Assembly (NCBI GenBank): GCA_041741375.1
Contig: JBGSKF010000151.1
Span: 696 to 64,695 of the forward strand
Direction: 5' to 3'
DNA: 64,000 nucleotides
Source: Gemmatimonadales bacterium
GTDB lineage: Bacteria; Gemmatimonadota; Gemmatimonadetes; Gemmatimonadales; GWC2-71-9
Both the position numbers and the translations under genes were made by a program. The notes under the pieces were generated by a model. That model saw only the letters and a list, made by a program, of their open reading frames with translations. It had not been told where the DNA came from and ran no database searches. Shown piece after piece: positions 7,033 to 38,721 of this stretch (the first letter of the stretch is position 1; each line of letters opens with the position of its first letter).

Positions 7033-7707
7033 ATGGAGATCCTGGTGGTGGACATCGGGGGGACCAACGTGAAGGTCCGGAGGAGCGGGCAGGAGGCGCC
7101 GATCCGGATCCCCTCCGGGTCCACCATGACTCCGGACACCATGATGGAGCAGATCGCCGCGGAGATCACCGGGTGGACCCATGACGTGGTGGCGATCGGC
7201 TATCCCGGGATCGTCCGGGACGGAGCGCCGGTGGCGGAGCCGCAGAACCTGGGGCCCGGATGGGTCGGCTTCGACTTTGCCGCCGCGTTCGGCCGGCCGG
7301 TGCGCCTCGTCAACGATGCCGCGATGCAGGCCCTCGGCGGGTATGCCGGGGGCCGGATGCTCTATCTCGGCGTGGGCACCGGTCTCGGCTCGGCGCTGAT
7401 GGTGGAGGGCGTGCTCCAGCCGCTGGAGCTGGCCCATCTCCCCTACCGGAAGGGAAGAACCTTCGAGGAGGAGGTGGGCCGCGAGGGCCGGGAACGCCTC
7501 GGGAAGAAGAAGTGGCGCCGCCGGGTGATCGACGTGGTGCACCGGCTCGCCACCGCAATGCAGGCCGATTCGGTGCTGCTTGGGGGTGGCGAGGCAAAGC
7601 GTCTCGCCTCGCGGATCGACAAGCTGCCTCCGGGCACGCGCATCGGCTCGAACGAGGATGCCTTCACCGGCGGACTCCGGATGTGGGAGACGGCGCAGGC
7701 TCCCTGA
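7033..7707 (+). CDS. ROK family kinase (polyphosphate glucokinase-like)
   Basis: VDIGGTNVK, VNDAAMQA, GVGTGLGSA and ELAHL motifs; 2 bp after the peptidase stop. Confidence 0.85.
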   Translation: MEILVVDIGGTNVKVRRSGQEAPIRIPSGSTMTPDTMMEQIAAEITGWTHDVVAIGYPGIVRDGAPVAEPQNLGPGWVGFDFAAAFGRPVRLVNDAAMQALGGYAGGRMLYLGVGTGLGSALMVEGVLQPLELAHLPYRKGRTFEEEVGREGRERLGKKKWRRRVIDVVHRLATAMQADSVLLGGGEAKRLASRIDKLPPGTRIGSNEDAFTGGLRMWETAQAP

Positions 7708-8836
7708 GCGCTCGCTCGGCGGCCACGACCTCCCTCACGGCGAGCACGAGCCGCTCCAGGTCTCCGTCACCCAGATCCCCCATCATCGCCACCCGGAACA
7801 CCGCCCGCGCCAGCGCACCCTGCCCCGCATAGATCACGAACCCCCGTTTCTTGAGCCCGTCGTGCAGTGCGTCATACGACACACCGGCCGGAAGCTGCCA
7901 GGAGCGCAACGCCACCGAGGACTCCTCCGTCCGGAGAAGCGGTGCCATTCCCATCGCGTCGAACCCCCGGGCCACAATGCGAGCCCTCGTCTCGTAGCGT
8001 GCCCGGCGTGCCGCCACTCCCCCTTGTTCGGCATGTTCCCGCAGCGCCTCGACGCATGCCTGCATCGCGGTGACCGGCGGCGTGAAGGGTGTTCCCCGCA
8101 GGTCCTGCGCGCGGCACCAGGTGCCGAGATCGAGGGAGAGGGTGCGGGGCGTGACGGAGGGTGGGAGGAGCGCGTTCCGACGGACGATCACGAAGGCCAC
8201 CCCCGGAACACCGTGCAGACACTTGTTGGCGGTGCCGGCGCAGGCGGTGATTCCCCAGGCTTCGAAGTCGATCGGTTCCGCTCCGAAGCTGCTGACGGCG
8301 TCGAGGAGGATACCCGCGCCCCGGTCCCGGCAGGCGGCGCCAATCCGGGCGATCGGGTTGAGCCGACCGGTGGTGGTCTCGTGGTGGACCACCGCGAGAT
8401 GAGTCGGGCAGGGGCTGTGGTCGAGGAGGCCGGTGACCGCGTCGAGGGGAATGCCGGCGCCCCACGGGAGGGTCAGGCGGGTGTGGGTGATGCCGTGGAT
8501 CGTGGCGATCCGGGAGAGGCGCTCGCCGTAGACCCCGTTCTCCACCACGGCCAGGGATCCGGTGGCGGGCACGAGGCTGCTCACCATCGCTTCCATCGCC
8601 GTGGTGCCGGATCCTCCGAGGAGAACCGCGGCCCATGTCGCCGGGTCCAGGTTGTACACCTCGAGGAGACGGCGGCGCACTTCGTCCTGCAGGTCGGCGT
8701 ACTCCGTTTCCCGGTGGCAGAGATCAGGCCCGTTCAGCGCGGCACGCACCCGGGCCGAGAGGGTGACGGGACCCGGGTTGAGCAAAAGGGTCCGATCGGC
8801 TGCGTTGATGGGGTCGGGATTCATGGCGCGCGCCAC
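7664..8836 (-). CDS. aepZ: 2-aminoethylphosphonate aminotransferase (PLP, class V)
   Basis: LLNPGPVT, HHETTTG, DAVSSFG, ANKCLHGVPG (PLP Lys) and FVIYAGQG; downstream of ppd. Start may be 8824. Confidence 0.9.
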   Translation of the reverse strand: MARAMNPDPINAADRTLLLNPGPVTLSARVRAALNGPDLCHRETEYADLQDEVRRRLLEVYNLDPATWAAVLLGGSGTTAMEAMVSSLVPATGSLAVVENGVYGERLSRIATIHGITHTRLTLPWGAGIPLDAVTGLLDHSPCPTHLAVVHHETTTGRLNPIARIGAACRDRGAGILLDAVSSFGAEPIDFEAWGITACAGTANKCLHGVPGVAFVIVRRNALLPPSVTPRTLSLDLGTWCRAQDLRGTPFTPPVTAMQACVEALREHAEQGGVAARRARYETRARIVARGFDAMGMAPLLRTEESSVALRSWQLPAGVSYDALHDGLKKRGFVIYAGQGALARAVFRVAMMGDLGDGDLERLVLAVREVVAAERALREPAPSPTSGVRR

Positions 8837-9996
8837 AGGGTGGCTCCGATATGGGACATGAGGCGCTCTGTGACCTGAACCGGAGTGAGGTGGGGACGAG
8901 GGAGACGGCCGGCGATGCCGGGCCGGATGCGAAGGTGGAGGAAGCGGGGACCGGGGCGGGGTTCCGGGCTGGTGAGGAGAGCGTCGATGGCGTCGAGCCG
9001 GTGGGACGCGAATGCCTGATGGTAGCCGCAGGCTGCCGCGATGCCGGCAAAATGGACCCTGGAAGAGACGGTCGGTTGTCCCCCGGTGGACTCGTGCATC
9101 TGATTGTCCAGGAGGAGGTGGATCAGGTTGCCTCCCGCCTGTGCCCCGATGGTGGCGAAGGTGCCCATCCGCATCAGGGCGGCACCGTCTCCATCAACCA
9201 CCACGACCCGGAGGTCGGGCCGGGCCTGGGAGAGCCCGAGGCCCACGGCGGTGGCGCACCCCATGGAGCCGACCATGTAGAAGTGATTGGGCCGGTCCTC
9301 TCGGGCATAGAGCTCCCGACCGGTGTACCCCGTCGTGGCGATCACCACGGTGGCGCCATCGGGCCGTGTGTGCTCGAGAAGCCGGCCGAGGGCCTCGGCA
9401 CGGGTGGGCCACTGCGCGGGGTCACTCACCTCCTCTTCCGGCGTGGGGCTGACCGGCCTCGAGGGGGGAACACTCCGCACGATTCGCGGGGGACGCGGGG
9501 CGATGGTTCCCTTGCGCATCAGCAGCGCGAAGGGGCGGTGGCCGGTGCGCAGGTGCTGGAGTGCGCGCTGGAGAACGGAGGCCACGGTCGCGGATTCGTT
9601 CGGGAAGTACTCCCATGGCACCTGCATCGTGTCCAGCAGGGATCCGGTGATCCGCCCCATCAGCTCATGCTGGGGCTCGTCCTTCAGGTCCGGTGCCCCG
9701 CGCCAGGTGACGATCAGGAGAACCGGGAGCCGGAAGACCCAGGCGAGCGAGGTGAGGGGGCTCACCGCGTTGCCGAGGCCGGAGTTCTGCATCATCGCGA
9801 TGCCGGGGTGCCCGCCGAGGGCGGCGCCGGCCATGGCGGCCACGGCCTCACCTTCATTTGCGGCCGTGAGACAGGGAAGCCCGGCATCGTCGATCACGTG
9901 GTCGAGGAACGGGGTGAGAAAGGAGCAGGGCACCCCGGCGTACCGGGCAAGGCCGAGGTCGCGAGCCGGGGTGACGAACTCCGAGGCCTCGATCAC
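8821..9996 (-). CDS. aepY: phosphonopyruvate decarboxylase
   Basis: [36 protein letters not shown] and [11 protein letters not shown]-binding motif. Confidence 0.95.
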
Positions 9997-11654
9997 GCGA
10001 ACGCTCCCGCCTGGTGGAGGTCCTCCAGGTCGTTGACGTCGAGCCAGTGCCCGCTGATATAACAGACCGCGGGCGGGGTGCCGGTGGCCGCGAGGTGTGT
10101 GAGGAGGAACGGGAGATCGAGCCGGGGGAAATCGGGGCGGGACTGAAGCTCCGTCAGAGCCCGCCGGAGGCGCTGCGTGCCCTCACTGCGCGAGCGGACC
10201 ATTCCGACCCACCGGCCATGGGCGGAGACGCCGTTGGATCCCGGGGTCGCGGAGACCCGGAGCAGGGAGACCCGTTGGTCGAAGATCCCTCGATCGTCCG
10301 CGGCGCTGCAGTGGGCCAGATCGCGGTCGAGGTGGCGGTCTCCCGGGCGCACGGAGGAATCGACGACGGTGACCACGTCTCCCTCGGTCTGGAAGAGACG
10401 ATCGAGGATGTAGCTCCGGAAGAGGATGTCGCCATAGAGCAGGAGCACGTCTCCCTCCATGATCTCCAAGGTGCGGGCCAGGGAGGCGAGTTCGCCCGTG
10501 GTGTCATGGTCGGGATTGAGGAGGACGGTGACGCCCGGAATGTCGATGGCCTCGGCGCGCCACCCCCCCACCACGGTGAGGTCGTGCATTCCCTGGCCCT
10601 TCAGGGTGTCCACCATCCGGCGAAGAAGCGGGACACCCGCCACGGGGAGCATCACCTTGGGGCGGTCCTCCGTCACCGCCTCCAGTCCCGCGCCGCGGGT
10701 GGCTCCCAGGATGATGGCCCGGGTGTGTCCGTGTCCGGTGTCCGCATACCGTCGCTCGGCCTCGAGCAACTCGTCGGCGCCTTGCAGCCGGAACACCTCG
10801 TCCACCGGGGCGATGCGGTCCTCCACCGTCACCAGTGTCTCCCGGGCGTGGATTTCCCGCGCGGTCTCCTGCATGGCCCGGATGGAGGAACGCAGCAGAT
10901 GGTTGGCCCAGATGACCACGTTGATGCCGGCCCGGCGGAACACGTCGGTGGGGGTGGAGTAGTACTTGGTGGGCACGATGACGAGGGGAGCGCGACCCGC
11001 CCATTTCCGGGCAAAGTCGAGGATCTCGTCGGGTCGCGAGCTCTTGCTGTGGATGAGGATCGCATCGGCGCCCGCCTGGCGGTAGGCCTCGGCCCGGCGC
11101 AGCGCCTCCGACAGGCCCCACCCGGCGATCAGGGCCTCCACGCGCGCCACCAGGCAGAAGTCCGCGGTGCACTGGCTGTCCTTTCCCGCCTTGATCTTGC
11201 CGCAGAACTCGTCCACATCGGCGAGCGGTTGTCGCTCCCCCCGGATGAAGCTGTTGGTCTTGGGGAACTGCTTGTCCTCGATACAGACACCGGCGATGCC
11301 GCGCTGTTCCAGCTTGCCCACGAGCCGCCGGAGGTTGTTGAAGTTTCCATACCCGGTGTCGCCATCGAGCAGGATGGGGATGGTGGTGGTGTCGGCCATG
11401 AATTCCAGGACATCCACCACCTGGGTCCAGCTCGCCTCGTTGCTGTCCCGCACACCGAGCTGGGCCGAGATCGAGAGCCCGCTGCCCCAGAGGCCGGCAA
11501 AGCCCGCCTCCTCGGCGATCCGGGCGCTGAGTCCGTTGTGGGCCTCCATCAGGAAGTCCAGATCGGGGGAGGTCAGCAGGCGGCGCAGAGCGGCCGCCTT
11601 GCCGGGGGCCTGGCACCGCGGGGCCACGGGAAGGCGAGGCAGGCTGCTGATCAT
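9993..11654 (-). CDS. pepM: phosphoenolpyruvate mutase fused to a C-terminal nucleotidyltransferase (PntC-like) domain
   Basis: Diagnostic EDKxxxxxNS motif ([11 protein letters not shown]) and DGDTG; C-terminal [25 protein letters not shown]-transferase domain. Confidence 0.96.
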
Positions 11655-12466
11655 GGGGAACGCTCCAGCGTGAGGGGCACGATCTCCCGGGATGGCCCAG
11701 GGGTTCCGGGAAGCGAATCAAGGAGGGGGAGAATGGCGGTCCGGGCGCGGGAGACATCCTCCGGGAAATCGATCTCGATCCAGGGAAGACCGGTGATGTC
11801 CTCCGCGCCGAATTCGCCCGAGGGACTCTCGAGGATCAGGTCGCGGAGTACCTCCTCATGCGGCGCTTCTTGTCGGCCCTGGTTGAGGTATCGGCGGGCT
11901 CCCTCCGCCATCCGGCGCGCTCCCGCGGCGGACAATCGGAAAAATCCCACCGACTCTCCCACGGTGTCGTAGCGCAGGTCCGATGCGACCTGTTTGCGGA
12001 ACTCGACGACCTGCCCCTTTCTCTGGCAGACCTTGACCGGCTCCTCCCCCTCGGCGGACGACCGGTCGAACAGGAGGCGTTGCGGGGGGCCCGGTGTGAG
12101 CAGGGGCGCGAGGATGCGACCGTCGCAGAGGACGTCGGCATCCAGGAGGATCGTCTCCTCGCCCGCGGTGAGCCAGGGAGCCGCGGTGTCCAGGCTCACC
12201 ACGCTTCCCTCGCGGAAGCGGGGGTTCCACCGGGTCTCGGGTCGGGGGATGATGTCGAGATGGTCCAGCACCTCCTCAATGGCATGATCGTGCCACCCGG
12301 TCACGATGCCTATCCGGAAGATACCCGCATCGTGCAGCATCCGGAGCTGCCGTTCGAGCAGGGTGTGGCCCCCGAAGGGGAGCAGACACTTGGGGAGTCG
12401 GTCCGCTTCGTCGCCGCCGGAGGAGAGCCGGCGCCCGATGCCCGCGGCGAGGATCACCGCCCTCAC
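11651..12466 (-). CDS. phosphocholine/phosphonate cytidylyltransferase family protein
   Basis: [31 protein letters not shown] and WIEIDFPED; GTG start overlaps the upstream stop. Confidence 0.9.
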
Positions 12467-13485
12467 GACGGGACTCCCGGTTCGCCGGGTGTGACGGTGC
12501 ACGGTCGGGCCATCGGAGCGATGGGAGCACGCGTCAGGGCGCGGGCCTCCGTGAACTGCCACACCACGAGGCCCGGGACTCCGAGGGCAAGCTCGCGGAC
12601 CCGCTTGGCAAGCGAGAGGGCGAGGGCCACTCCGGGGTCGATGCCGAGGAGGGAGCCGAGAAAGATGTAGGCGCCCTCCTGGATGCCCAGGGCCCCGGGC
12701 ACGGCGAAGGCCGCGCCGCGCACCGCCTGCCCGAGGCTCTCGAGCACCAGCGCCTCGGTGAGGGAAACGGGGGCTCCCACCAGCCACATCACGAGCCAGA
12801 CCTCTCCCGCTCCGAAAATCCACGCCCCGAAGTGCCACACGCTCGACACGAGGACTCCCCGGCCCCGGCCGTAGACGGCCCGGAGCTCGCGGTCGAGCGA
12901 CTCGGCCCCCCCCAGAAGGCTGGTCCACGCCCGCCCGGTGACCGGAGCGAGGTGCCGCGCCAGGAAGCCGAAGAGACCTCGTCGCTGGACATGCCAGAAG
13001 AGGCCGATGACGAACGCCACGAGCCCGAGCCCCGCGAGAAGAACCGGCAGAGCCCCGGTCGGTCCGATCCGCGTGAGGAGGATCCCGAGGCCCAGGAGCC
13101 CGAAGAACATCTGGGTGCCGGCGGCGACGGTCATGTCCGCGATCACTGTGGCCGCGGCCACCGGTCCCGGGGTGCCCGTGCGGGTCACGAGACGCGCCTT
13201 GGCCACATCGCCCCCGATCTGCGCCACGGGTAGGAGCCCGTTCACCGATTCTCCGATCCAGCGGGTCCACACCAGGGTTCGAAGCGGAGGATGGGGTTGC
13301 GGGAAGAGGGGGCGCCAGGCGATGGCGTCGAGCACGACGATCACCCCATGCAGCACAATCACCAGGAGGAGGCCCCAGCCGGCAGCGCCCAGCGCGGTGA
13401 GCACGACGGTGGTTCCCTGCCACGCCAGGATCCCCGTGAAGAGGGCGAGGCCCAGGAGTCCGGTGGCGAGGGCTGCTTTCCTCAT
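12463..13485 (-). CDS. HpnL-like / lysylphosphatidylglycerol synthase TM (flippase-like) membrane protein
   Basis: Multi-TM protein; RWIGESVNGLLPVAQIGGD and ESLGQAVRGAAFAVPGALGIQEG match the HpnL (TIGR03476)/LPG_synthase_TM pattern. Confidence 0.85.
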   Translation of the reverse strand: MRKAALATGLLGLALFTGILAWQGTTVVLTALGAAGWGLLLVIVLHGVIVVLDAIAWRPLFPQPHPPLRTLVWTRWIGESVNGLLPVAQIGGDVAKARLVTRTGTPGPVAAATVIADMTVAAGTQMFFGLLGLGILLTRIGPTGALPVLLAGLGLVAFVIGLFWHVQRRGLFGFLARHLAPVTGRAWTSLLGGAESLDRELRAVYGRGRGVLVSSVWHFGAWIFGAGEVWLVMWLVGAPVSLTEALVLESLGQAVRGAAFAVPGALGIQEGAYIFLGSLLGIDPGVALALSLAKRVRELALGVPGLVVWQFTEARALTRAPIAPMARPCTVTPGEPGVPS

Positions 13486-14237
13486 GCGGTCTGCTTCCTC
13501 CCGTGGAACACCTGCCGGAATCCGAAATACGCGATGCTGTCCTTCATGTGCGACACGAACCGGTGCCAGGGCGTCATTCGTGGGTCGGTGACGAACTCCA
13601 TGGTGAGGGAGACCCGTCGTTCATCCGGTCCCAGCGGGGTCACCTGATGCCAGACCGTGTCGCCGTTGAAAAAGACCAGGGTGCCCGGGCGAAGGGGAAC
13701 CGAGAGGTCAATGGTGTCCCGGTCGGTGCGGGTGCGATGAAGCTGGCAGTCGAGGGTCGCGGCGGAGTCGTTGACCAGACCGAAGAGCAGGGTGTACCGC
13801 CGGCCGCGGTAGTAGGAGGTGTCGTAGTGCCAGGTGATGTAGTCGCCCGGTTCGGTGTAGTAGTACAGGGCGTAGGTGTGGGGGTCCGATGCGGGGCAGT
13901 CGAGCAGCGTGTCGCCGGTCAGCTCCTGGAGAAAGGCGCGCAGGGCGGGCGACCGGTACAGCTCCGGGATCAGGGGGAAGGCCCGGTCCAGCACATGACG
14001 CCCCACGCTTCCGCCCTTCTTGACCCGGGGGACGAAATTGCGGTGGACCAGGGGATCCAGATCCGGAAGCCGCTCCAGCAGGCGAGTGAGAACCGCAGGG
14101 GGGAGGAAGTCCTCCACCAGGAGAAACTCGCCCTGCTCGGCGAACTGGAGACGGAGGGCTTCGTGATCCAGGGCAGCGAGAGCGGCCCGCAGGTCGGAAT
14201 CGAGCGCAGGCACGGGGGAGGTCGCGGTCGCTGTCAT
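13482..14237 (-). CDS. 2OG-Fe(II) oxygenase (probable phosphonate headgroup hydroxylase)
   Basis: HxD...H facial triad (WHYD...WHQV) and RxS 2-oxoglutarate motif (RRVS). Confidence 0.85.
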   Translation of the reverse strand: MTATATSPVPALDSDLRAALAALDHEALRLQFAEQGEFLLVEDFLPPAVLTRLLERLPDLDPLVHRNFVPRVKKGGSVGRHVLDRAFPLIPELYRSPALRAFLQELTGDTLLDCPASDPHTYALYYYTEPGDYITWHYDTSYYRGRRYTLLFGLVNDSAATLDCQLHRTRTDRDTIDLSVPLRPGTLVFFNGDTVWHQVTPLGPDERRVSLTMEFVTDPRMTPWHRFVSHMKDSIAYFGFRQVFHGRKQTA

Positions 14238-14878
14238 GGATCTCTCGCCGGGGTGGAAGTGGTGCTCAAAGTGGAGGGGGATTCCGGGTGAGGCCGGAGG
14301 CCGAGATACCGGAAGACGAGCCACGCCGCGAAGAGCGGAGCCCCGACCACCGCGGCCAGGAGGAAGGGCTGGAGGGCTCCCCCGAGAACCACGAGGGGGA
14401 GCAGATAGAGGACGTCCTCGATCTCGAACCAGCCGGTGTGGGGGAGGGCGGCCCGCGCGGCTCCGATCCGGCGTTCGATCTCGATGCGGAGCCAGAAGAT
14501 GGCCGAGACCGAGAGCCCGGCCAGGAGTCCGAGCGGGGCCGCCCATTGGTGCAGCCACCCGGAGCGGAGGCCGATCCCGATTCCCAGGAAGACCAGGCCG
14601 TGGACCGCCGCATCGGAGGCCAGATCGTAGACATGGCCGAATCGTGTGATCCGCCCGGTCATCCGGGCCAGTTCCCCGTCCGTGTGGTCGAGCAGGTTGG
14701 AGAGAAAGAAGAGCCACCCGCCGGTCACGACCCAGTGGCCTCCGGCGGCGAAGGCCACGGCGGAGGCGAGCCCGACCACCAGGCGGAGGGTGGTGAGGTG
14801 ACTGGGCGTGACCGGCGTGTGTTGGAGCGGCCGCACCAGCCAGTGGGCCAACCGCGCGTCGAGGGGGCGGGTGCTCAT
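14234..14878 (-). CDS. CDP-alcohol phosphatidyltransferase family protein
   Basis: TPSHLT and DHTDGELAR..T.FGHVYDLASD signature. GAGGG RBS before ATG 14878; alternative start 14974. Confidence 0.9.
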   Translation of the reverse strand: MSTRPLDARLAHWLVRPLQHTPVTPSHLTTLRLVVGLASAVAFAAGGHWVVTGGWLFFLSNLLDHTDGELARMTGRITRFGHVYDLASDAAVHGLVFLGIGIGLRSGWLHQWAAPLGLLAGLSVSAIFWLRIEIERRIGAARAALPHTGWFEIEDVLYLLPLVVLGGALQPFLLAAVVGAPLFAAWLVFRYLGLRPHPESPSTLSTTSTPARDP

Positions 14879-15007: not shown

Positions 15008-16213
15008 CTAGCGGATGGCGCGGTCCAGGTCCACGCCGGCCAGGGTACAGATGCGGGCGATCGTTTCCCCGATCTTGTTGTTGGGGGTGGAGGCCCCGGC
15101 GGTGACGCCGATGCGGTGCACTCCCCCGAGCCACCCGGTGGCGTCGCGGGTCCGGGTGTCCCCCACGGGCTGAAACTCGATCCGTCCCGTGTCCAGGTCG
15201 ACACATTCGGCGTCGTCGATATGGTAGGTGCGCACCCCGCGCAACTCCGCGAGCTCGGCGAGGTGGCTTGTGTTGGAACTGTTGTACCCCCCCACCACGA
15301 TCATCAGGTCGAGCGGCTCCCGCAGCAACGCCTCCATGGCGTCCTGACGCTCCTGGGTCGCGGAGCAGATGGTGTCGAAGGTGCGGACCCGGGTGCCGAG
15401 TTCCTCCGGCCCGTAAATCCGCCGCATGGTGCCCCGGAACGCGTCGGCGATGGCGAGGGATTCGCCGGACAGCATCGTGGTCTGGTTGGCCAGCCCGATG
15501 TGCTGGAGGTCGTGGGCAAAATCGAAACCGGCGGAAGTGGCTTGGGCAAAGTACTCCTGCAGGGGCGCCGGATCGCCCCTGAATTCCATGAACTCCATCA
15601 CCTGGCGGGCCTCGGCCATGTCCAGAACCACGAGATAGCGGCCCTCAGGGTACTTTTCGACCTGGCTCGCGGTGGCCTTGGTCTCCTCGTGCCAGTGCTT
15701 GCCATGGATGACCGAGGTGAAGCCGTCCCGGGCATAGGCATCCACCCGCTTCCAGACATTGAGAACCGAACCGCAGGTGGTGTCCACCAGAACGCACCCG
15801 ATCGATTGCAGCCGCTGAAAGTCCCGCATCGTCACGCCGAAGGCGGGCAGAATGACGACATCCTCCGCCGTGACGGGGCCAAAATCGAAATCCGCGCCCT
15901 CCGGACGATGCAGGAAATGGATTCCCATCGCCGCCAACCTCCGATTGACATGAGGGTTGTGGATGATCTCCCCCACCAGAAAGAGGCGGCGGTCCGGAAA
16001 CTTGGTGCGGGTCTCGTACGCGTAGTCCACGGCGCGATCCACACCGTAGCAGAACCCGAATTCCCGGGCGAGGTGGAAGGTCAGGTGATCCACGGAGAGG
16101 GTGTACTCGTTCGCTCGCAACGCATCAATGACAGCGCTGTGGTAGTCGGCGGCCAACTGGTCCTGAATGGTTCCCTTCAGGCCGAAGCCCCGGCGGAAGT
16201 AGGTGGTCCCCAT
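15008..16213 (-). CDS. ispH: 4-hydroxy-3-methylbut-2-enyl diphosphate reductase (long form)
   Basis: FGFCYGV, EIIHNP, DTTC, HEET, NQTT, DTICSAT, SSNT and TAGASTP motifs. Confidence 0.95.
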   Translation of the reverse strand: MGTTYFRRGFGLKGTIQDQLAADYHSAVIDALRANEYTLSVDHLTFHLAREFGFCYGVDRAVDYAYETRTKFPDRRLFLVGEIIHNPHVNRRLAAMGIHFLHRPEGADFDFGPVTAEDVVILPAFGVTMRDFQRLQSIGCVLVDTTCGSVLNVWKRVDAYARDGFTSVIHGKHWHEETKATASQVEKYPEGRYLVVLDMAEARQVMEFMEFRGDPAPLQEYFAQATSAGFDFAHDLQHIGLANQTTMLSGESLAIADAFRGTMRRIYGPEELGTRVRTFDTICSATQERQDAMEALLREPLDLMIVVGGYNSSNTSHLAELAELRGVRTYHIDDAECVDLDTGRIEFQPVGDTRTRDATGWLGGVHRIGVTAGASTPNNKIGETIARICTLAGVDLDRAIR

Positions 16214-16471
16214 GGATCGGAGCATATCGCTCTCCGGGTGAGGGCGAAAGGGGCGTAAGTTAAGCAGCAGACACACGGGGTAGGACCGGCGGATGTCGTG
16301 ACGCGACCTGCGGGCGCGGTCTGGACGCCGGATTGAACCGCGGTGTAATTTGCGACCCCCGCGAAGGGGAGGAAGGAACCCGCGCATGAGGAGGGATGGC
16401 CAGGTGATCCGTCGCACGAGCGTGTGGCATCCAACGGAACGGATCCTGCCCGGTCTCGGGAAGGGCTCCGG

Positions 16472-19279: not shown

Positions 19280-20151
19280 TGCTGATGAGATGTGGGGTTC
19301 TCGGGGCGATGCTCTGCCTCCCATGGACTGTCGGAGCGGCGCAAACCGCCGGCCCGCGCACACTCGTCGTGTGTGCACCGGGACATCCGGGCACCGCTCT
19401 GCAGGCCGAACCCACGCTCCGGGCATTGGCGCGAGCCCTTGCCGCCGTGGGTGCCTGGTCCGGTGACACGGTCCGGACAACCTTCTGTGAAAGCGCGGAG
19501 GAAGGAGTGCGTCAGGTGAGAGCGTCGACCGTGGCGGCCGCACTCGTCTCCCTGCCCTTCTATCTGGCCCATGCAGGGGAGTTGGGCCTCCGAGCCGTGG
19601 CGGTTCCGGTCACCTCCGTGGGGGCTCGGGCTCCGTGGGTTCTCGTGGCAGGTCAGGGTCGTGTGCGCCGTCCCGCGGACCTGGTTGGATGGACGGTGTC
19701 CAGCAGGGCAGGGTACGCCCCGAGTGTGGTGGAGGCCCTGGTGGCCACTGCGTGGGGGCGTCTCCCGGCGGGGGTCGGGGTCACCTTCATACCCCGGTCG
19801 TTGTCGGCACTGCGCCGGTCCGCGGCCGGCGACCCGGTGGCGGTTCTGCTCGACGGTGAGGAGGCGGCTGCCCTGAAGGCGCTCCCCTTCGCCAGTCGGT
19901 TGGAGGAGGTGTTCCGTTCCGATTCGCTTCCCCTCTCGGTTCTTGCCGTGGTCGATCGGAATGGTGTGGGTGACGCGGAAGCGAGCTGGGACCGGGACCT
20001 CGTGGAACCCCTGCTGAGGCTCCACCGATCCCCCGGGGGAGCCGCAGTTCTGAAGGAGATGCGGATCGAGCGCTTCGAACGTCTGAGCCCGCGAGACCAG
20101 GCGCAGCTCGAGCGGTGGCCCGGTTCTTCCTCGACTCCGCGCCCTCGATGA
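19279..20151 (+). CDS. periplasmic PhnD/transferrin-like substrate-binding protein (BstB-like, putative)
   Basis: Signal peptide, 'LVVCAPGHPGT..AEP' N-terminus and binding-protein-like size; coupled to the transporter and the TPR lipoprotein. Fold is inferred. Confidence 0.55.
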   Translation: MLMRCGVLGAMLCLPWTVGAAQTAGPRTLVVCAPGHPGTALQAEPTLRALARALAAVGAWSGDTVRTTFCESAEEGVRQVRASTVAAALVSLPFYLAHAGELGLRAVAVPVTSVGARAPWVLVAGQGRVRRPADLVGWTVSSRAGYAPSVVEALVATAWGRLPAGVGVTFIPRSLSALRRSAAGDPVAVLLDGEEAAALKALPFASRLEEVFRSDSLPLSVLAVVDRNGVGDAEASWDRDLVEPLLRLHRSPGGAAVLKEMRIERFERLSPRDQAQLERWPGSSSTPRPR

Positions 20152-20966
20152 GAAGGGCACGGTGGATGACGGCGTTTCCGGGACACCTGGTCCTCGCGCT
20201 CACTGCCACCGCATGTGCCTCGGCCCTCCCTCCCCCGCGGGACCTGAACAGCATTGTTCCCGAGCAGGCAGAGTGGGAGTCCCTTCCGGTCGACGAGTTG
20301 GCGAGAAGGGCCGAGGACCGGTTTGCGGAACGGACCGTGGCCGCGGTGCGGGAGGCCGCCGAGATCTGGACCCGGATCGCGGTCCGACGGCCTGGTGACT
20401 TCGAACCATTGACTGCGGCAGTTCGGGCACGGATCTGGTTGTCGGAAACCCTCGAGATCCCCGGGGATCGGAGCAGGGAGGCTGTGGACGCCGTTCGGAC
20501 TGCGCAATGGTGCGACATTCGGGCTCCGGGAAATCCGGAGTGTGCCTACTGGTTGGGAGCAGCCCTGGGGGTGCAGGCGCGGGAAAACCGCAGCACGGCG
20601 CTCGATGCCCTCGATCGCATGGAATCACTGTTCACACGGGCGGCAGCCGAGGCACCCCGGGTGGCCGACGGGGGTCCCGATCGGGCGCTGGCAAGCCTGT
20701 ATGCCCGGGCCCCGGCGTGGCCCGCCGGTCAGGGGGACCCCGACCGGGCCCTTGAGCATGCCTTCCGCGCCATCGAGCTCGCGCCGGAGCACCCCCCGAA
20801 CTACCTTGTCGCTGCCGAGGCCCTGCGGGCTGCGGGAGACAGGAGCCGGGCGATCACCTATCTTGATCGGGGGCTTGTGGCGGCCCGCCGCCGACTGGGG
20901 GCACGAGACCCGGACGCACCCCGGTGGATCCAGGAGATCGAAACGGAACGTTTGAAGTATCAGTAG
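20148..20966 (+). CDS. TPR lipoprotein, TatT/BstC-like
   Basis: Lipobox-like TATAC; helical repeats; 'CAYWLGAALG', 'GGPDRALASLYARAPAWP..GD...A..H..RAIELAPEHPPN' resembling TatT-type proteins. Confidence 0.7.
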   Translation: MRRARWMTAFPGHLVLALTATACASALPPPRDLNSIVPEQAEWESLPVDELARRAEDRFAERTVAAVREAAEIWTRIAVRRPGDFEPLTAAVRARIWLSETLEIPGDRSREAVDAVRTAQWCDIRAPGNPECAYWLGAALGVQARENRSTALDALDRMESLFTRAAAEAPRVADGGPDRALASLYARAPAWPAGQGDPDRALEHAFRAIELAPEHPPNYLVAAEALRAAGDRSRAITYLDRGLVAARRRLGARDPDAPRWIQEIETERLKYQ

Positions 20967-21001
20967 CCTATGCCCAGTCACGAGGGAGGATCGAGGACTT
21001 G

Positions 21002-22972
21002 ATGAACCGATTCCGTGCGACGAGCGAACCGCTCGGGGACGCGTCGATTCTCGAGGAATCTGCCCGGGGACCGGAGTCTGTCCGGATCGGGCATCTGGAA
21101 CGGGTGATGCACGCCGCCCAGGAATACCTTTTCGGCATTCAGCAGCCCGACGGCCATTGGCGCGCGCGGCTGGAAGGCGATTCCATCCTGGAGTCGGAAT
21201 ATGTCCTGCTGATGCACTTCCTGGGACGGGCGGGAGAGCCCAAAGTGCGCAAGGCCGCCGATTACCTCCGTCGCACCCAGATGGAGACGGGGGGCTGGGC
21301 CCACTATCACGGGGGCCCGGCCGAGGTCAGCGCGTCGGTGAAGGCGTACTTCGTCCTCAAGCTCATGGGCGACCGGCCCGAGGCCCCGCACATGGTGCGG
21401 GCCCGTGAGATGATCCTGCGCGCGGGGGGGATCGAGGCCTGCAACTCCTTCACCCGGATCTACCTGGCGATCTTTGGCCAGTATCCCTGGAGCCGGTGCC
21501 CCGCGGTGCCGCCCGAGATGATGCTGCTTCCGCGATGGTCCCCCCTGCACATCTACCGGATGTCGGCCTGGTCCCGCACGATCGTGGTCCCCCTCAGCAT
21601 GATCTGGGCGCATCGGCCGAGTGTTGCGGTGCCGGAGGACGCCTCGATCGCCGAACTCTTCGTCCCGGGGCGCGCACCCACCATGGATCTGCAGGCGGCG
21701 GCGCGGTTCTGGCGGCTTCTCTTTACCGGTCTCGATGTGGCCCTCAAGGGGATCGAGGAGCTTCCCGTGAAGCCGCTCCGCGAACGGGGCCTGCGGGAGG
21801 CCGAACGATGGATCCTGAAGCGGTTGGAGAAGAGTGACGGGCTGGGGGCGATCTTCCCACCCATCATCAACACGATTCTGGCCCTCCGGTGCCACGGGTA
21901 TGCTGTGGATCACCCGGTGATCCAGTCCCAGGTGGCGGAGCTCGAAAAGCTCGAGCTGGAGGACGAAAGGGATCTCCGGATCCAGCCCTGCCTCTCGCCG
22001 GTCTGGGACACGGCACTCACGATGAATGCCCTGCTCGGATCCGGAATCAGCGGGGAGGACCCTCGGCTCCTGTCCGGCGCCCGCTGGCTGCTCGAGAAGG
22101 AGGTGCGGGAGACGGGGGATTGGGCCATGACCTGCGAACCGGTGGCGCCCGGAGGGTGGTACTTCGAGTACGCCAACGAGTTCTACCCCGACCTCGACGA
22201 CACCACCCAGGTGCTCACGGTCCTCGGACGGATCCGATTCCCCGATCCGGCGGAGGACCGCCGCCGAACCGAGGCGATGCGGCGAGGGCTGGATTGGATG
22301 CGGGCCATGCAGAACGCCGACGGCGGGTGGGCCGCCTTCGACCGGGGGTGCGATTCCGAGTTCCTCACCCATGTGCCCTTCGCCGATCACAACGCCATGA
22401 TCGACCCGAGCTGCGAGGACATCACCGGCCGCGCGCTGGAAACGTTCAGTCTCCTCCGGCCGTCGGGCGGGGATGCGGAGGTACAGCGCGCCGGGCAGTT
22501 CCTGCTGCGGCGCCAGGAGGCGGACGGGACCTGGTATGGGCGGTGGGGATGCAACTACCTCTACGGAACCTGGCTCGCCGTGCATGGGCTCACCCGGGAA
22601 CTCCTTCCCCCCGCCGACGCCCGGATCCAGCGGGCTGTGGCGTGGGTCCGCGCCCGCCAGAATGCGGATGGGGGATGGGGAGAACTCCCCCGGTCCTACG
22701 ACGATCCCTCCACCAAGGGCGACGGCCCGAGCACAGCCGCACAGACCGCCTGGGCGGTGCTGACCCTGCTCGCCGCGGGGGACCACACCTCCGCGAGTCT
22801 GGTGCGGGGCATCACCTATCTGCTGGAAACCCAGCGGGCCGACGGGTCCTGGTACGACGAGGCCTGGACCGGAACCGGGTTCCCGCGCGTGTTCTATCTG
22901 AAGTATCACTTGTATGCCACATACTTTCCGCTCCTCGCTCTGGGGACGTACCGGGAGAAGGTGACCGCATGA
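21002..22972 (+). CDS. shc: squalene-hopene cyclase
   Basis: QW repeats (QQPDGHW, QNADGGW), catalytic DLDDT (DxDD), SPVWDT and TGTGFPRVFYL. Confidence 0.97.
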   Translation: MNRFRATSEPLGDASILEESARGPESVRIGHLERVMHAAQEYLFGIQQPDGHWRARLEGDSILESEYVLLMHFLGRAGEPKVRKAADYLRRTQMETGGWAHYHGGPAEVSASVKAYFVLKLMGDRPEAPHMVRAREMILRAGGIEACNSFTRIYLAIFGQYPWSRCPAVPPEMMLLPRWSPLHIYRMSAWSRTIVVPLSMIWAHRPSVAVPEDASIAELFVPGRAPTMDLQAAARFWRLLFTGLDVALKGIEELPVKPLRERGLREAERWILKRLEKSDGLGAIFPPIINTILALRCHGYAVDHPVIQSQVAELEKLELEDERDLRIQPCLSPVWDTALTMNALLGSGISGEDPRLLSGARWLLEKEVRETGDWAMTCEPVAPGGWYFEYANEFYPDLDDTTQVLTVLGRIRFPDPAEDRRRTEAMRRGLDWMRAMQNADGGWAAFDRGCDSEFLTHVPFADHNAMIDPSCEDITGRALETFSLLRPSGGDAEVQRAGQFLLRRQEADGTWYGRWGCNYLYGTWLAVHGLTRELLPPADARIQRAVAWVRARQNADGGWGELPRSYDDPSTKGDGPSTAAQTAWAVLTLLAAGDHTSASLVRGITYLLETQRADGSWYDEAWTGTGFPRVFYLKYHLYATYFPLLALGTYREKVTA

Positions 22973-24027
22973 GATTTCCGCTGCACATCACGCTCGACAC
23001 CGTGAACCACCAGGTGCGGAACGCGATCGCCGGCAACAAGCGATATCCGTTCGTCCTGATGCTGGAACCGCTCTACACCTGCAACCTGGCCTGCATCGGA
23101 TGCCTGCCCGAGCGCCACACCGGCAAGCTGGCGGACCGGCTTCCCCTGGAGGCGTGCCTCAAGGCGGTGGATGACTGCGGCGCGCCCTCCGTGTCGATCT
23201 GCGGTGGCGAACCGACCGTGTACCCCGAGCTCCCCGAGCTGGTGGCGGGGATCATCGCGCGGAAGCGGCACATCTACCTCTGCACCAACGCCCTGTTGCT
23301 CGACACCAAGGTGTTCGGCCGGATTCCGCCCCACAAGCGGTTGACCATCAACGTTCACCTCGACGGGATGCGAAAGACCCACGACTACGTGACCGCACGG
23401 GAGGGAGTGTTCGACAAGGCGATCGCGATGATCCGCGAGGCCAAGGCCCGCGGCTATCACGTGATCACCAACACCACGGTGTTCAAGGAGACCGACATCG
23501 ACGAGGTGGAGGAACTCTGTGAGTACATGACGCAACTCGGCGTGGACGGCATGCTGATCTCCCCGGGATATCACTACGAACACATCGAGCACGACATCTT
23601 CCTCACCCGGGAAGACATCGAGGAGAAATTCAAGCGCGTCCTCCGGTTCGCCGACCGGTTCCCCCTCATGTCCACCCCGCCGTTCCTGGAGTTTGCGGCG
23701 GGACTCCGCGAGTACCCGTGCTCGCCCTGGAGCACCGTGACCTTCACGCCGAAGGGGTGGAAGGGGCCCTGCTACCTGATCGGAAAGAAGTTCACCTTCG
23801 ACTGGAACGAGTTCTGGACCGGAACCGATTGGGCCTACTGGGAATCCCGGCAGGACCGCCTCTGCCAGAACTGCAAGATGCACTCGGGGTTCGAGGCCTC
23901 GGTGGTCCGGGAGCTGGCCCGCAATCCGGGTGACCTCATGCGCGTGATGAAGTGGAACTTTCTCGGCAACGGACGCCGCAAGGCACCGGAACGGGAGACG
24001 GTGGCCGTCGCGTCGAACGGACAGTAG
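22969..24027 (+). CDS. hpnH: adenosyl-hopene transferase (radical SAM)
   Basis: YPFVLMLEPLYTCNLACIGC (CxxxCxxC), GGEP and C-terminal CQNCKMHSGFE; ATGA overlap with shc. Confidence 0.93.
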   Translation: MRFPLHITLDTVNHQVRNAIAGNKRYPFVLMLEPLYTCNLACIGCLPERHTGKLADRLPLEACLKAVDDCGAPSVSICGGEPTVYPELPELVAGIIARKRHIYLCTNALLLDTKVFGRIPPHKRLTINVHLDGMRKTHDYVTAREGVFDKAIAMIREAKARGYHVITNTTVFKETDIDEVEELCEYMTQLGVDGMLISPGYHYEHIEHDIFLTREDIEEKFKRVLRFADRFPLMSTPPFLEFAAGLREYPCSPWSTVTFTPKGWKGPCYLIGKKFTFDWNEFWTGTDWAYWESRQDRLCQNCKMHSGFEASVVRELARNPGDLMRVMKWNFLGNGRRKAPERETVAVASNGQ

Positions 24028-25017
24028 ATGCACCTGGTCACCGGCGGAACCGGCTTCGTCGGAGCCCATGTGGTGCGCGCCCTGGTGGCTCGGGGAGAGG
24101 GAGTGCGATGTCTGGTCCGGCCCTCCAGCGACCGGGCCAACCTCGAAGGGCTTCCGGTGGAACTGGTGCAGGGAGTCCTCGACGACCCCCGGTCTCTCCA
24201 CGCGGCGATGGCGGGGTGTGAGATGGTCTACCACGTGGCCGCCGAGTATCGGCTGGGGGCCCGCAATCCCGCCTCGCTGTATCGGAGCAACGTGGAGGGA
24301 ACCCGGAACCTTCTGCAGGCCGCGGGGGACGCCGGGGTGTCCCGCATCGTCTACACCAGCACGGTGGGGGCCCTGGTTCCCAACCCGGCGGGAGGCCCGG
24401 CCGACGAGAGCCATTTTCCGCCGAACGGACAGGCGCTGATCGGGCACTACAAGCGTAGCAAGTTCCTCGCCGAGCAGGTGGCTCTCTCGTTCGTGAAGGA
24501 GGGACTCCCGGTCGTGGTGGTGAGCCCCTCCGCGCCGATCGGCGAGCTGGACCGAAAACCCACGCCCACCGGTCGGCTGATCGTCGACTTTCTGCGCGGA
24601 AAGATGCCGGCCTACATGGACGCCGGCCTCAATCTGGTCGACGTGCAGGACGTGGCCGCGGGGCATCTCCTGGCGGCGGAGCGAGGTGTCGTGGGAGAGC
24701 GTTACATTCTCGGCGGGCGCGACTTCACCCTTCGCGAAATCCTGGAGATGCTCGCGCGGCTCTCGGGCCGGCCCGCGCCCCGCCTTCGGATCCCCGCCTG
24801 GGTGGCGATGAGCGCCGCCGTCGTGAACACCGCCTGGTCGTGGAGCCTGGGGAGGGATCCCGGCATTCCGGTGGAAGGGGTGCGCATGGCCCTGAAACCA
24901 ATGTCCTTCACGCCGGCCCGGGCCGTGCGGGAGCTTGGGCTGCCCCAGAGTCCGATCGAGGACGCGCTGGGCCGGGCCGTGGAGTGGTTCCGGCAGCACG
25001 GTCATGTCCCCGCCTGA
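24028..25017 (+). CDS. hpnA: hopanoid-associated NAD-dependent epimerase/dehydratase
   Basis: VTGGTGFVG, HVAAEYRL, YKRSK and KPTPTG motifs. Confidence 0.9.
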   Translation: MHLVTGGTGFVGAHVVRALVARGEGVRCLVRPSSDRANLEGLPVELVQGVLDDPRSLHAAMAGCEMVYHVAAEYRLGARNPASLYRSNVEGTRNLLQAAGDAGVSRIVYTSTVGALVPNPAGGPADESHFPPNGQALIGHYKRSKFLAEQVALSFVKEGLPVVVVSPSAPIGELDRKPTPTGRLIVDFLRGKMPAYMDAGLNLVDVQDVAAGHLLAAERGVVGERYILGGRDFTLREILEMLARLSGRPAPRLRIPAWVAMSAAVVNTAWSWSLGRDPGIPVEGVRMALKPMSFTPARAVRELGLPQSPIEDALGRAVEWFRQHGHVPA

Positions 25018-25798
25018 ATCGGCCGGAATCGTGATGGTCATGGCCGCACTTCCGGAGGAAGTTGTCGTACTCCGACGGCGTTTCACCGACGGTCGAGGGT
25101 TGTCGAAGGGACCGGGGGCGTTGCGCCGCTGGGAAGGAAAGTTGGGACCCTGCCGCGTGCAGGTGGTGGTCACGGGAGACGGAGCCGACCGGGCCCGATC
25201 CGGAGCACGACTCGCCTTCGACGGGCTGTTGGGAGAGGGTGCTCGATGCCGGCATCTCATCGTCGCCGGCGTGGCGGGCGGAGCCGATCCCGCTCTCCGG
25301 GCGCACGATCTGGTGGTGGCGCGCGAAGTGGTCCGGGAGGGAGGTGTCGCACGCCGGGCGGACGAGGCGATGGTCGCTGAGGTGGTTCGGGAGACGGGTG
25401 CTGCGCCGGGTCGGGTGCTCACCCGGGAGACGTTGGCCGCCTCCGTGGCTCACAAGCGCCAGATCCACGACGAGTGGTCGAGGGTGGATGACGTCCCGAC
25501 GGTGGTGGATCTGGAGACCGCCTGGTACCTCGAGGAGGCGGAACGTCGCGGGGTGCCGTGGACGGTACTGCGCGTCGTGAGCGACGCGGCACATGAGCCC
25601 CTTCCCGCGTTTCTGGAAGGATGCCGGGATGAGGGAGGTGCCATCATCCGGGGGCGCGTGGCGCGGCATGCCCTGCGGCACCCGGGCACCATCCGGTCGC
25701 TCCTTCGGCTTGCCCGCCGGGTGCGGCGCTGCGCCGGGGTGCTCGCCGAGGCCGTCGCCCTGACCGTGGGCATGGATGTCAAGGAGAATGGTGGATGA
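25004..25798 (+). CDS. hpnG: adenosylhopane nucleosidase/phosphorylase
   Basis: PNP/MTAN fold: MAALPEE, AGVAGG, VDLET and LRVVSD; located in the hpn operon. Confidence 0.8.
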   Translation: MSPPESAGIVMVMAALPEEVVVLRRRFTDGRGLSKGPGALRRWEGKLGPCRVQVVVTGDGADRARSGARLAFDGLLGEGARCRHLIVAGVAGGADPALRAHDLVVAREVVREGGVARRADEAMVAEVVRETGAAPGRVLTRETLAASVAHKRQIHDEWSRVDDVPTVVDLETAWYLEEAERRGVPWTVLRVVSDAAHEPLPAFLEGCRDEGGAIIRGRVARHALRHPGTIRSLLRLARRVRRCAGVLAEAVALTVGMDVKENGG

Positions 25799-26703
25799 TG
25801 GCAGAGAGTGAACCGACCCGAGGGATGGAGGAACTCGACCGGCTGCTCCGGGACACGAGCCGCACGTTCGCGCTCGCCATCCCGCTCCTCCCCGGAGAGC
25901 TGCGGCGGTCGGTCACGGTGGCCTATCTGCTGTTCCGCATCGCCGACACCTTCGAGGACAGCGACTCCTGGTCCCCCGACGAGCGGATCATCGCCCTCAG
26001 CGAGTTCGCAGATCTCTTGCGCCACATTGATATCGACAAAGCGAACCTCCTGGGGCGCGACTGGGCCACGCGCTCTCCGGTGCATCACGCCGGATATCTC
26101 GAACTCCTCGAACGGACGGGCCAGGTTCTCGAGGCCCTCGCCGAGCTGCCGGAGCCGGTCCGGGAACGAATCGTCCATCACACCTGCCGGACCGCCGACC
26201 GGATGGCGTTCTTCGTTCGGCAGACCGGAACCGATGGCCAGCTCCGTCTCGGTTCCGTGGGGGAGCTTCGGGAGTACTGCTATGCGGTGGCGGGAATCGT
26301 GGGGGAGATGCTCACCGACCTCTACCTGTTGGAGTGCCCGGGACTCGAAACGCGCGCCGCTGACCTCCGTCGCTGGGCTCCCCTCTTCGGCGAGGCGCTG
26401 CAGCTCGTCAACATCCTCCGCGACGCCTCGGCGGACGGCTTGGAGGGACGGAGCTACGTCCCCGCCCGGGCCAACCGGGCCGAGCTCTTTGCCCTGGCCC
26501 ATGCCGACCTGGGCGTGGCCCGGGAGTACACCGACGCGCTTCGGGCCGGGGGTGCTCCGAGTGGGGTGATCGCGTTCAACGCCCTCCCGATCGAGCTGGC
26601 CGTGGCCACGCTGGAGGTGGTGGAACGGGAGGGACCGGGAGCCAAGATCTCCCGCGAGGCGGTCGGGGAGATTCTGATGCAGGTTCTGGGCTCATGCCCT
26701 TGA
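25795..26703 (+). CDS. squalene synthase (single-enzyme farnesyl-diphosphate farnesyltransferase type)
   Basis: SRTFAL, YLLFRIADTFED, YCYAVAGIVG and LQLVNILRD motifs. Confidence 0.85.
   Translation: MMAESEPTRGMEELDRLLRDTSRTFALAIPLLPGELRRSVTVAYLLFRIADTFEDSDSWSPDERIIALSEFADLLRHIDIDKANLLGRDWATRSPVHHAGYLELLERTGQVLEALAELPEPVRERIVHHTCRTADRMAFFVRQTGTDGQLRLGSVGELREYCYAVAGIVGEMLTDLYLLECPGLETRAADLRRWAPLFGEALQLVNILRDASADGLEGRSYVPARANRAELFALAHADLGVAREYTDALRAGGAPSGVIAFNALPIELAVATLEVVEREGPGAKISREAVGEILMQVLGSCP

Positions 26704-35127: not shown

Positions 35128-38721
<3,594 letters not shown>

Follow-up and report, generated by a model that had tools for sequence, protein, structure and literature searches.

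The most abundant family of bacterial phosphonate gene clusters is built around a seven-gene core, Burkholderiales_CDP-OH, which the pertinent sections of Li & Horsman 2022 (PMC8942020) equate with the Group 1 phosphonolipids of Yu et al. 2013 and count in 318 of 882 RefSeq ppm neighborhoods. Those sections treat its two membrane genes as 'phospholipid biosynthesis', draw no hopanoid link for the group and note that no phosphonolipid has been characterized from it despite its abundance. We analyzed a window of 64,000 nucleotides from the metagenome-assembled genome (MAG) of a Gemmatimonadales bacterium (assembly GCA_041741375.1, contig JBGSKF010000151.1, positions 696 to 64,695; G000, contig C151; 3.86 Mb in 250 contigs, 95% complete), in which a phosphonate cassette of this type and a set of hopanoid genes share positions 7664-26703. 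Because the cassette lies inside a hopanoid cluster and occurs almost only in hopanoid makers, our analysis suggests that this 19-kb region is one lipid-building unit whose product is a phosphonate-capped hopanoid.

Classical hopanoid tailoring proceeds through hpnH and hpnG and then through hpnI, hpnK and hpnJ, or hpnO. The HpnL family is itself defined by hopanoid context, and its function is called unknown where two hopanoid surveys of 2025-26 discuss it (10.1101/2025.07.29.667474, PMC12583986). Terpenes and phosphonates have been brought together before in two taxa. For Nitrosococcus, where genes for squalene synthase and cyclases neighbor ppm, a passage of PMC8942020 mentions 'a possible phosphonoterpene', a case for which the accessible text of Wang et al. 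2020 (PMC7285500) gives only an antiSMASH hybrid call, and the linkage of shc to ppm in Roseomonas led to the proposal of 'an undiscovered terpene-phosphonate' in the corresponding passage of an Acetobacteraceae genome-mining study (PMC8776678). The cluster type, and the adjacency of shc and ppm-type genes in Roseomonas and Nitrosococcus, are already known. New here are the scoring of the Group 1 'phospholipid' membrane gene as HpnL, the intermingling of cassette and hopanoid genes, seen in Gemmatimonadota, Salinisphaera, Steroidobacteraceae, Pandoraea, Pararobbsia and others, and the near-confinement of the transferase family to shc-positive genomes, which PepM genomes with no transferase do not share.

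Comparison of the locus with described systems

Third-position GC, open reading frame analysis, Pfam and NCBIfam resolve the region into 16 genes, eight on each strand. Read in the direction of transcription, the minus-strand arm comprises ispH (15008..16213; a long form of about 400 aa with an uncertain start at 16213 or 16225; NF009911, 498 bits), a CDP-alcohol phosphotransferase (14234..14878; 214 aa, or 246 aa from an alternative start at 14974; PF01066, 51 bits), an Fe(II)/2-oxoglutarate (2OG) oxygenase of hydroxylase type (13482..14237; PF23169 HalD, PF13640), an HpnL family membrane protein with a stand-alone MprF-flippase-like transmembrane domain (12463..13485; TIGR03476, 322 bits, cut-off 196; PF03706, 100 bits), a stand-alone NTP_transf_3 cytidylyltransferase that is the second PntC-like domain of the cassette (11651..12466; PF12804), PepM fused to a C-terminal PntC-type NTP_transf_3 cytidylyltransferase (9993..11654; TIGR02320, 395 bits; PF12804 at residues 315-436), the phosphonopyruvate decarboxylase Ppd (8821..9996; TIGR03297, 428 bits, cut-off 313; TPP_enzyme_N/C) and, as the last gene, a 2-aminoethylphosphonate (AEP) transaminase of PhnW/AepZ type (7664..8836; TIGR03301, 372 bits, cut-off 361; Aminotran_5). 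The seven cassette genes behind ispH are translationally coupled. Their start and stop codons overlap as ATGA or GTGA at five of six junctions, with a GTGA joining the start of the stand-alone cytidylyltransferase to the HpnL stop, and ppd and the transaminase gene (aepT) overlap by 16 bases, as tight a packing as had been read from the sequence. The end of ispH is 33-130 bases from the transferase start.

The plus-strand hopanoid arm begins about 200 bases from ispH and diverges from it. Behind a transporter set described below, it carries the squalene-hopene cyclase gene shc (20924..22972; TIGR01507, 690 bits, cut-off 431), hpnH for adenosylhopane synthase (22969..24027; an ATGA overlap with the shc stop; TIGR03470, 353 bits, cut-off 225), hpnA for a hopanoid-associated short-chain dehydrogenase/epimerase (24028..25017; TIGR03466, 454 bits, cut-off 368), a gene for an HpnG-like nucleoside phosphorylase with an uncertain start (24935..25798; PNP_UDP_1, 48 bits; TIGR03468, 82 bits, cut-off 187) and a single squalene synthase-type gene, SQS_PSY (25795..26703; PF00494, 125 bits; best NCBIfam match TIGR01559, 80 bits, below cut-off). 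HpnL and shc are 7.4 kb apart, and the cluster shows no compositional break in a window of about 68% GC. PepM, Ppd, the transaminase, HpnL, Shc, HpnH and HpnA all score over curated cut-offs.

Pfam and NCBIfam recovered every gene named by the sequence-only reading at its place, with two corrections. Where that reading listed a cytidylyltransferase and pepM, both are present, but there are two cytidylyltransferase domains and one is fused to PepM; and its order hpnN-shc-hpnH-hpnA-hpnG-sqs, diverging from ispH, holds except that BstB-like and BstC-like genes lie between the hpnN-like gene and shc.

The cassette carries the same seven functions as the Group 1 core (Ppm-PF12804 PntC, Ppd, AEPT, 2OG oxygenase, second PntC, CDP-OH and LPG_synthase_TM), including the Ppm EDKxxxxxNS motif with the PF12804 fusion and, besides CDP-OH, a second membrane gene. 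Cores in Pandoraea, Pararobbsia, Nevskia and others show the same gene order at 45-65% amino-acid identity; here and in several lineages the core is embedded in a hopanoid cluster. This locus shares clustered shc, hpnH, hpnA, hpnG-like and hpnN-like genes with classical hopanoid tailoring. It differs in drawing squalene from a single SQS-type enzyme instead of HpnCDE and in its decoration genes: hpnI, hpnJ and hpnK are missing from the locus, as had been noted, and a search of the whole genome (95% complete) gave none over cut-off (hpnO was not searched for). No other known side-chain decoration is therefore left, hpnO aside, and the phosphonate cassette supplies the only candidate tailoring genes. 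The sequence-only reading had proposed that the phosphonate arm may replace the usual tailoring genes; for hpnI, hpnJ and hpnK this was examined in this one cassette-bearing genome.

A further likeness is to IPCT/DIPPS, whose two halves in NF041135 are matched by the stand-alone cytidylyltransferase and the transferase (E 1e-10 and 1e-8), and whose logic, a soluble CMP/CDP-activated head group passed to an alcohol, is shared. The scores are far below the NF041135 cut-off of 580 bits, however, and the proposed reaction differs both in its donor, a CMP-phosphonate, and in its acceptor, a triterpenoid polyol of the membrane.

Interleaving of the cassette with hopanoid genes in distant lineages

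Both arms are rare in the order of the source organism, which makes close-relative synteny uninformative. Among 41 genomes of the order (G000 and 40 relatives), a true PepM is confined to G000 and its congener G002, and shc to these two and G007; in G002 the order of the 19 genes compared is fully conserved, with identities of 85-99%. Since close relatives were no help, we followed the transferase family instead, which has 3061 database relatives and reaches 50-60% identity in Nostoc, Gemmatimonadota, Nevskia, Salinisphaera and others. A search with an alignment of 23 transferase relatives confirmed 545 loci, and we took the 80 best, sampling one genome per species and including 10-kb flanks. 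Forty-three of these were cyanobacterial and 37 non-cyanobacterial. Within the best 80, all seven cassette genes are colinear on one strand at 21 of the 37 non-cyanobacterial loci, HpnL is present at 30, and shc, hpnH or hpnA lies within 10 kb at 11. Carriers available in culture and not pathogenic include Nevskia soli DSM 19509, Salinisphaera hydrothermalis EPR70 and S. aquimarina KCTC 52640.

The arrangements differ from lineage to lineage, but each intersperses the two pathways. Four loci, from two Salinisphaera, one Lysobacterales and one gammaproteobacterial MAG (L032, L077, L068, L071), carry the one-strand order sqs-shc-hpnG-hpnN-CDPOH-hpnA-DUF2147-2OG-HpnL-NT-PepM-ppd-aepT-hpnH (CDPOH, transferase; NT, cytidylyltransferase). 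Steroidobacteraceae (L081, L086) have shc-hpnG-hpnA-CDPOH-...-aepT, and a second Gemmatimonadota lineage (L011, L089) has hpnN-cassette-sqs with shc-hpnH-hpnA-hpnG beyond. The extended view of Pandoraea pneumonica and Pararobbsia alpina reads shc..hpnA-hpnH-ispH..hpnN..aepT-ppd. Four gammaproteobacterial loci (L035, L040, L045, L058) have hpnN and hpnA on either side of the transferase and no PepM in range; in the genomes of the first three, PepM is found elsewhere, over cut-off in two and as two contig-end fragments in the third. The pepM-shc linkage, whose conservation in relatives had been proposed as a check, recurs in several distant lineages, the close relatives being silent on it. A similar AEP-lipid cassette in Burkholderia had been cited as a caveat by the sequence-only reading; this arm is indeed the known Burkholderiales_CDP-OH core, as described in part of PMC8942020, but the supposedly separate locus is contiguous with shc-hpnA-hpnH-ispH-hpnN in Pandoraea and Pararobbsia.

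On a quick maximum-likelihood tree of the transferase, hopanoid linkage needs seven changes, at least four of them forced by well-supported branches. With four to seven changes, the linkage is not a single clade's accident.

Several loci show variants of the arrangement. Mevalonate-pathway genes stand in the place of ispH in the second Gemmatimonadota lineage, between shc-hpnH-hpnA-hpnG and hpnN-cassette-sqs (L011:522-7120 and L089, G539:C5); they encode a polyprenyl synthase, an FMN_dh/IDI2-like protein, HMG-CoA reductase, a GHMP kinase and an AA_kinase. The DUF2147 gene between hpnA and the oxygenase in the Salinisphaera superclusters (L032:11756-12262, L077:11608-12132) belongs to a family proposed, in a passage of 10.1101/2025.07.29.667474, as a hopanoid carrier 'HpnT'. 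A Desulfobacteraceae MAG (L054, 354-10576) of unstated completeness reads hpnA-HpnL-shc-hpnG-hpnN-NT-like-transferase and yielded no PepM; its NT, transferase and HpnL may together furnish hopanoids with a head group that is not a phosphonate. Three Paraburkholderia loci (L073, L074, L080) read transferase-oxygenase-HpnL-NT, with no PepM, ppd or aepT match in the 10 kb downstream, where other genes come next, and many of the 43 cyanobacterial loci (L008-L076, Nostoc and others) have the transferase alone or with the oxygenase only. Two or three transferase paralogues occur in the gammaproteobacteria G169, G232, G086 and G200, one set scoring 250-325 bits and a lower set about 170-200 bits; G169 has, between shc and PepM, an HpnL-like gene with a transferase copy on either side.

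Co-occurrence of the transferase with squalene-hopene cyclase

The transferase family occurs almost exclusively in genomes that have shc. In all, 61 distinct transferase-positive genomes were checked for shc. Thirty were genomes with transferase loci, mostly picked because their flanks held no shc, and all 30 carry shc over cut-off. We also drew 401 gammaproteobacterial genomes evenly from the class of Salinisphaera, 400 of which were scored for transferase and PepM. Across this sample shc is present in 64 of 401 genomes, the transferase family (E <= 1e-30) in 28 of 400 and PepM over cut-off in 39 of 400. The cyclase gene accompanies 27 of 28 transferase-positive genomes and 37 of 372 transferase-negative ones (Fisher p 3e-23, kinship ignored). 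The lone shc-negative carrier, the 1.8-Mb assembly G202, has hpnH and HpnL.

PepM is likewise present in 27 of the 28 transferase-positive genomes, and the PepM-positive genomes that have no transferase serve as a control: shc occurs in 2 of 12, which matches the baseline. One of these two (G303) has PepM and HpnL 8 kb from shc. In 11 of the 28 positives, no more than 12 kb separates PepM or the transferase from shc or hpnH; most of the others are on short contigs. The association extends to a second phylum, since among 201 Gemmatimonadota genomes the transferase occurs in three, from two families, and all three are among the six that have shc.

HpnL shows a related distribution. Of the 65 genomes in the gammaproteobacterial sample that have shc or hpnH, 37 carry it over cut-off; among the 28 transferase-positive genomes it reaches the cut-off in 20, with a 140-170-bit relative in five more, and it does so in 17 of 37 shc-positive genomes that have no transferase, often about 9 kb from shc. 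HpnL thus belongs to hopanoid clusters whether phosphonate genes are present or not, and its fixed place in the cassette argues that the cassette product is handled like a hopanoid. Together with the interleaving, these results support a functional coupling of the phosphonate and hopanoid arms beyond mere adjacency.

Enzymes of the cassette and proposed pathway

PepM matches the solved phosphoenolpyruvate (PEP) mutase of Mytilus (PDB 1m1b) with 428 bits and has its Ppm-specific motif at residue 126. The transaminase is the terminal gene of a PepM/Ppd operon and passes the biosynthetic-type TIGR03301 cut-off, and on these grounds we discarded a catabolic role for it. CDP-alcohol phosphotransferases are marked by the signature D(x)2DG(x)2AR...G(x)3D(x)3D, which the cassette transferase carries in full as DHTDGELARMTGRITRFGHVYDLASD, at residue 96 of the 246-aa reading; a 100% identical database cluster (P0001) has the 214-aa form.

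The closest solved chain to the stand-alone cytidylyltransferase is 6pd1 (nucleotidyl transferase/aminotransferase class V; E 1e-6), which we take to be the PntC of Rice et al. 2019. PntC-type enzymes activate AEP as CMP-AEP, according to the relevant passages of that work (PMC6697681), and a PF12804 domain fused to Ppm with a second copy nearby, as found here, is described there for many ppm clusters. Unlike in the PntC system, the downstream transferase is CDP-OH and not LicD, and the matches to 6pd1 are weak (E 1e-6 and 8e-4).

The oxygenase aligns to the halogenases HalB and HalD (7u6i, 7u6h) and has H-Y-D where these have H-W-G. This HxD triad, in place of HxG/A, excludes a BesD/Hal-type radical halogenase and places the enzyme among the hydroxylases. 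Its family acts on free amino acids, so AEP fits as a substrate.

HpnL is an all-helical protein of 340 aa with an AlphaFold (AF2) model of pLDDT 82. A PDB sequence search gave no meaningful match, and MprF takes each of the top five places among the Foldseek matches of the model in the PDB (TMq 0.46-0.57, E 6e-3 to 7e-2, none at or below 0.001), in line with the PF03706 match. HpnL has no C-terminal aminoacyl-phosphatidylglycerol synthase domain as MprF does. Only the membrane domain is present, so that aminoacylation cannot be assumed, contrary to one suggestion in a passage of 10.1101/2025.07.29.667474, and we set aside a lysyl-phosphatidylglycerol-synthase-like chemistry.

A pathway can be drawn from these assignments. 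On the plus strand, the SQS-type enzyme would supply squalene and Shc hopene, and HpnH, the HpnG-like protein and HpnA would build the C35 ribosyl/polyol side chain, with precursor supply probably raised by the additional ispH. On the minus strand, PepM, Ppd and the transaminase would convert PEP through phosphonopyruvate and phosphonoacetaldehyde to AEP, which the 2OG hydroxylase probably turns into hydroxy-AEP, position 1 being the literature's prediction. The PntC-type cytidylyltransferase or cytidylyltransferases would then activate the head group as CMP-(hydroxy)AEP, and the CDP-alcohol transferase would place the phosphonyl group on a bacteriohopanepolyol hydroxyl, most simply the terminal C35-OH of bacteriohopanetetrol (BHT), with release of CMP. 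The zwitterionic product would be flipped by HpnL into the outer leaflet, from where the HpnN-like resistance-nodulation-division (RND) transporter, a probable hopanoid exporter with BstB- and BstC-like partners, may export it. The [M+H]+ values calculated for such products are 654.4857 for BHT-AEP (C37H68NO6P) and 670.4806 for BHT-hydroxyAEP. We infer the hydroxylation site, the cytidylyltransferase substrates, the hopanoid acceptor and the flippase role of HpnL from sequence and gene context, and we put the probability that CMP-(hydroxy)AEP is moved to a bacteriohopanepolyol, flipped by HpnL and exported by the HpnN-like system at roughly 0.6.

A nitrogen-bearing hopanoid of another kind, 35-ethenolamine-BHT, is described in a passage of PMC12583986 as tentatively identified and as making up 23% of the bacteriohopanepolyol derivatives of Methylocella palustris; the passage names no gene. 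We considered it as a product of this cassette and dropped it, as we saw no simple chemistry leading there.

Alternative readings

The explanation that competes most seriously is a non-hopanoid phosphonolipid, in which CMP-(hydroxy)AEP is passed to diacylglycerol, ceramide or another membrane alcohol, and the pathway is co-selected or co-regulated with hopanoids through joint work in the outer membrane or shared export by HpnL and HpnN. The label 'Group 1 phosphonolipid' assumes such a product, a 1-hydroxy-AEP sphingolipid is recorded from Bacteriovorax stolpii in the section of PMC8942020 concerned, and the nearest characterized relatives of the transferase use glycerolipid donors; the cyanobacterial cassettes, moreover, are unlinked to hopanoid genes. 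However, glycerolipids are universal, and yet the transferase is nearly absent from genomes that have no shc (1 of 28, with hpnH). It is also kept between hpnN and hpnA where PepM is elsewhere, and the passages on Group 1 in PMC8942020 name no characterized phosphonolipid from so abundant a group. We consider a non-hopanoid phosphonolipid rather unlikely.

Improbable, in our view, is a phosphonate on some other envelope molecule of hopanoid producers, such as lipid A, a glycan, or a head group made of a sugar or cyclitol in a composite hopanoid. Phosphonoglycans are the other common fate of AEP in the relevant parts of PMC6697681 and PMC8942020, and flippase-like domains of the HpnL type also accompany glycosyltransferases (an InterPro AglD note in a passage of 10.1101/2025.07.29.667474). 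The cluster in the window, however, has no glycosyltransferase or LicD-type transferase, hpnI, hpnJ and hpnK were not found in the genome, and the only transferase of the conserved core is an integral-membrane CDP-alcohol phosphotransferase. Accidental adjacency or island assembly of two unrelated pathways would be compatible with joint horizontal arrival, given that PepM is limited to G000 and G002 and shc to these and G007 in the order, but is very improbable in view of the differing interleaved arrangements that recur on the transferase tree four to seven times at the least, the near-exclusive co-occurrence in two phyla and the control in which only 2 of 12 PepM-positive genomes with no transferase have shc.

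A number of observations nevertheless weigh against a phosphonohopanoid. To our knowledge, no CDP-alcohol transferase accepts a triterpenoid polyol, and the nearest solved relatives of this one are phosphatidylinositol and phosphatidylinositol phosphate synthases, weakly (E about 6e-5). Hopanoid genes lie near the cassette in only one of the 43 cyanobacterial loci (L076, hpnH/hpnA), HpnL lies within 10 kb in none of the 43, and two complete cyanobacterial genomes have shc 60-380 kb from the cassette; the genes are also dispersed on large contigs in G159 and G397. The co-occurrence is a correlation among related, non-independent genomes; seven candidates per genome were scored for the transferase, so that some 'negatives' may be false, and four of the 28 positives (G110, G212, G367, G379) are unpublished genomes, with a count of 23 of 24 when they are left out. 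The presence of hpnH gives no discrimination either, as 25 of the 28 genomes with the transferase and 34 of the 37 shc genomes that lack the transferase have it, and we dropped it as a discriminator of a C35-polyol from a C30 acceptor, as it had no power.

The literature adds further points on this side. The string 'phosphon' is absent from the accessible text of both hopanoid surveys (10.1101/2025.07.29.667474, PMC12583986), and in the accessible hopanoid survey literature Roseomonas and Belnapia appear in a genome table and references only. The literature searched yielded no paper on a phosphorus-containing hopanoid or a general hopanoid-phosphonolipid link. The sequence-only reading, which knew of no characterized phosphono-hopanoid, was right to that extent, although a 'terpene-phosphonate' had been speculated on for Roseomonas (PMC8776678) and Nitrosococcus (PMC8942020, PMC7285500), as the passages cited above show.

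On balance, the comparative data considerably strengthen, and do not prove, the hypothesis of a phosphonate-capped hopanoid. The coupling of the two arms that the sequence-only reading had proposed is borne out by shc co-occurrence, interleaving and an HpnL over cut-off; its further step, a (hydroxy)AEP ester of a bacteriohopanepolyol, would be the predicted product.

Other genes in and around the cluster

The transporter set at the head of the hopanoid arm (16424-20966, plus strand) combines an RND protein, a periplasmic binder and a tetratricopeptide repeat (TPR) outer-membrane protein, and resembles the sterol transporter BstA/BstB/BstC of Methylococcus below curated cut-offs. Its members are an HpnN/BstA-like RND (MMPL) lipid transporter (16424..19279; TIGR03480, 387 bits, cut-off 752; BstA, 307 bits, cut-off 1400), a BstB-like periplasmic lipid-binding protein (19210..20151; NF045601, 55 bits, E 6e-15, below cut-off) and a BstC-like TPR protein (20115..20966; NF045602, 95 bits, E 5e-27, below cut-off; TPR_19). 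This set may stand in for a lone HpnN and represent a hopanoid version of the sterol system in Gemmatimonadota.

A second ispH lies on contig C139 (4118-5149), which makes the clustered ispH an extra copy. Pandoraea and Pararobbsia also have ispH within their superclusters.

The genes that flank the region are unrelated housekeeping genes, encoding an S9 peptidase, an arginase, a TonB receptor and DAACS transporters. Further along the window, positions 35128-38721 (minus strand) encode a 1197-aa fusion of a 2-oxoacid acyltransferase (E2) catalytic domain and a 2-oxoglutarate dehydrogenase E1, a type known from actinobacterial OdhA/Kgd.

Implications for phosphonate and hopanoid biology

Two questions meet at this locus, namely what the Group 1 clusters make and what HpnL does, and one lipid extraction could address both. 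We regard the chances as evenly balanced that Group 1, the most abundant family of bacterial phosphonate clusters, makes phosphonohopanoids, that is, (1-hydroxy-)AEP esters of bacteriohopanepolyols, and not a glycerophosphonolipid. If this is true, the transferase would be the first enzyme known to use CMP chemistry for adding a charged head group to a hopanoid, with HpnL as its flippase, so that a new lipid class would come with functions for both HpnL and the transferase family. Such lipids, if found, would form a new class of hopanoids with a carbon-phosphorus bond, with a bearing on membrane biology and on the environmental phosphonate pool, and would include hopanoid biomarkers that standard work-ups would miss.

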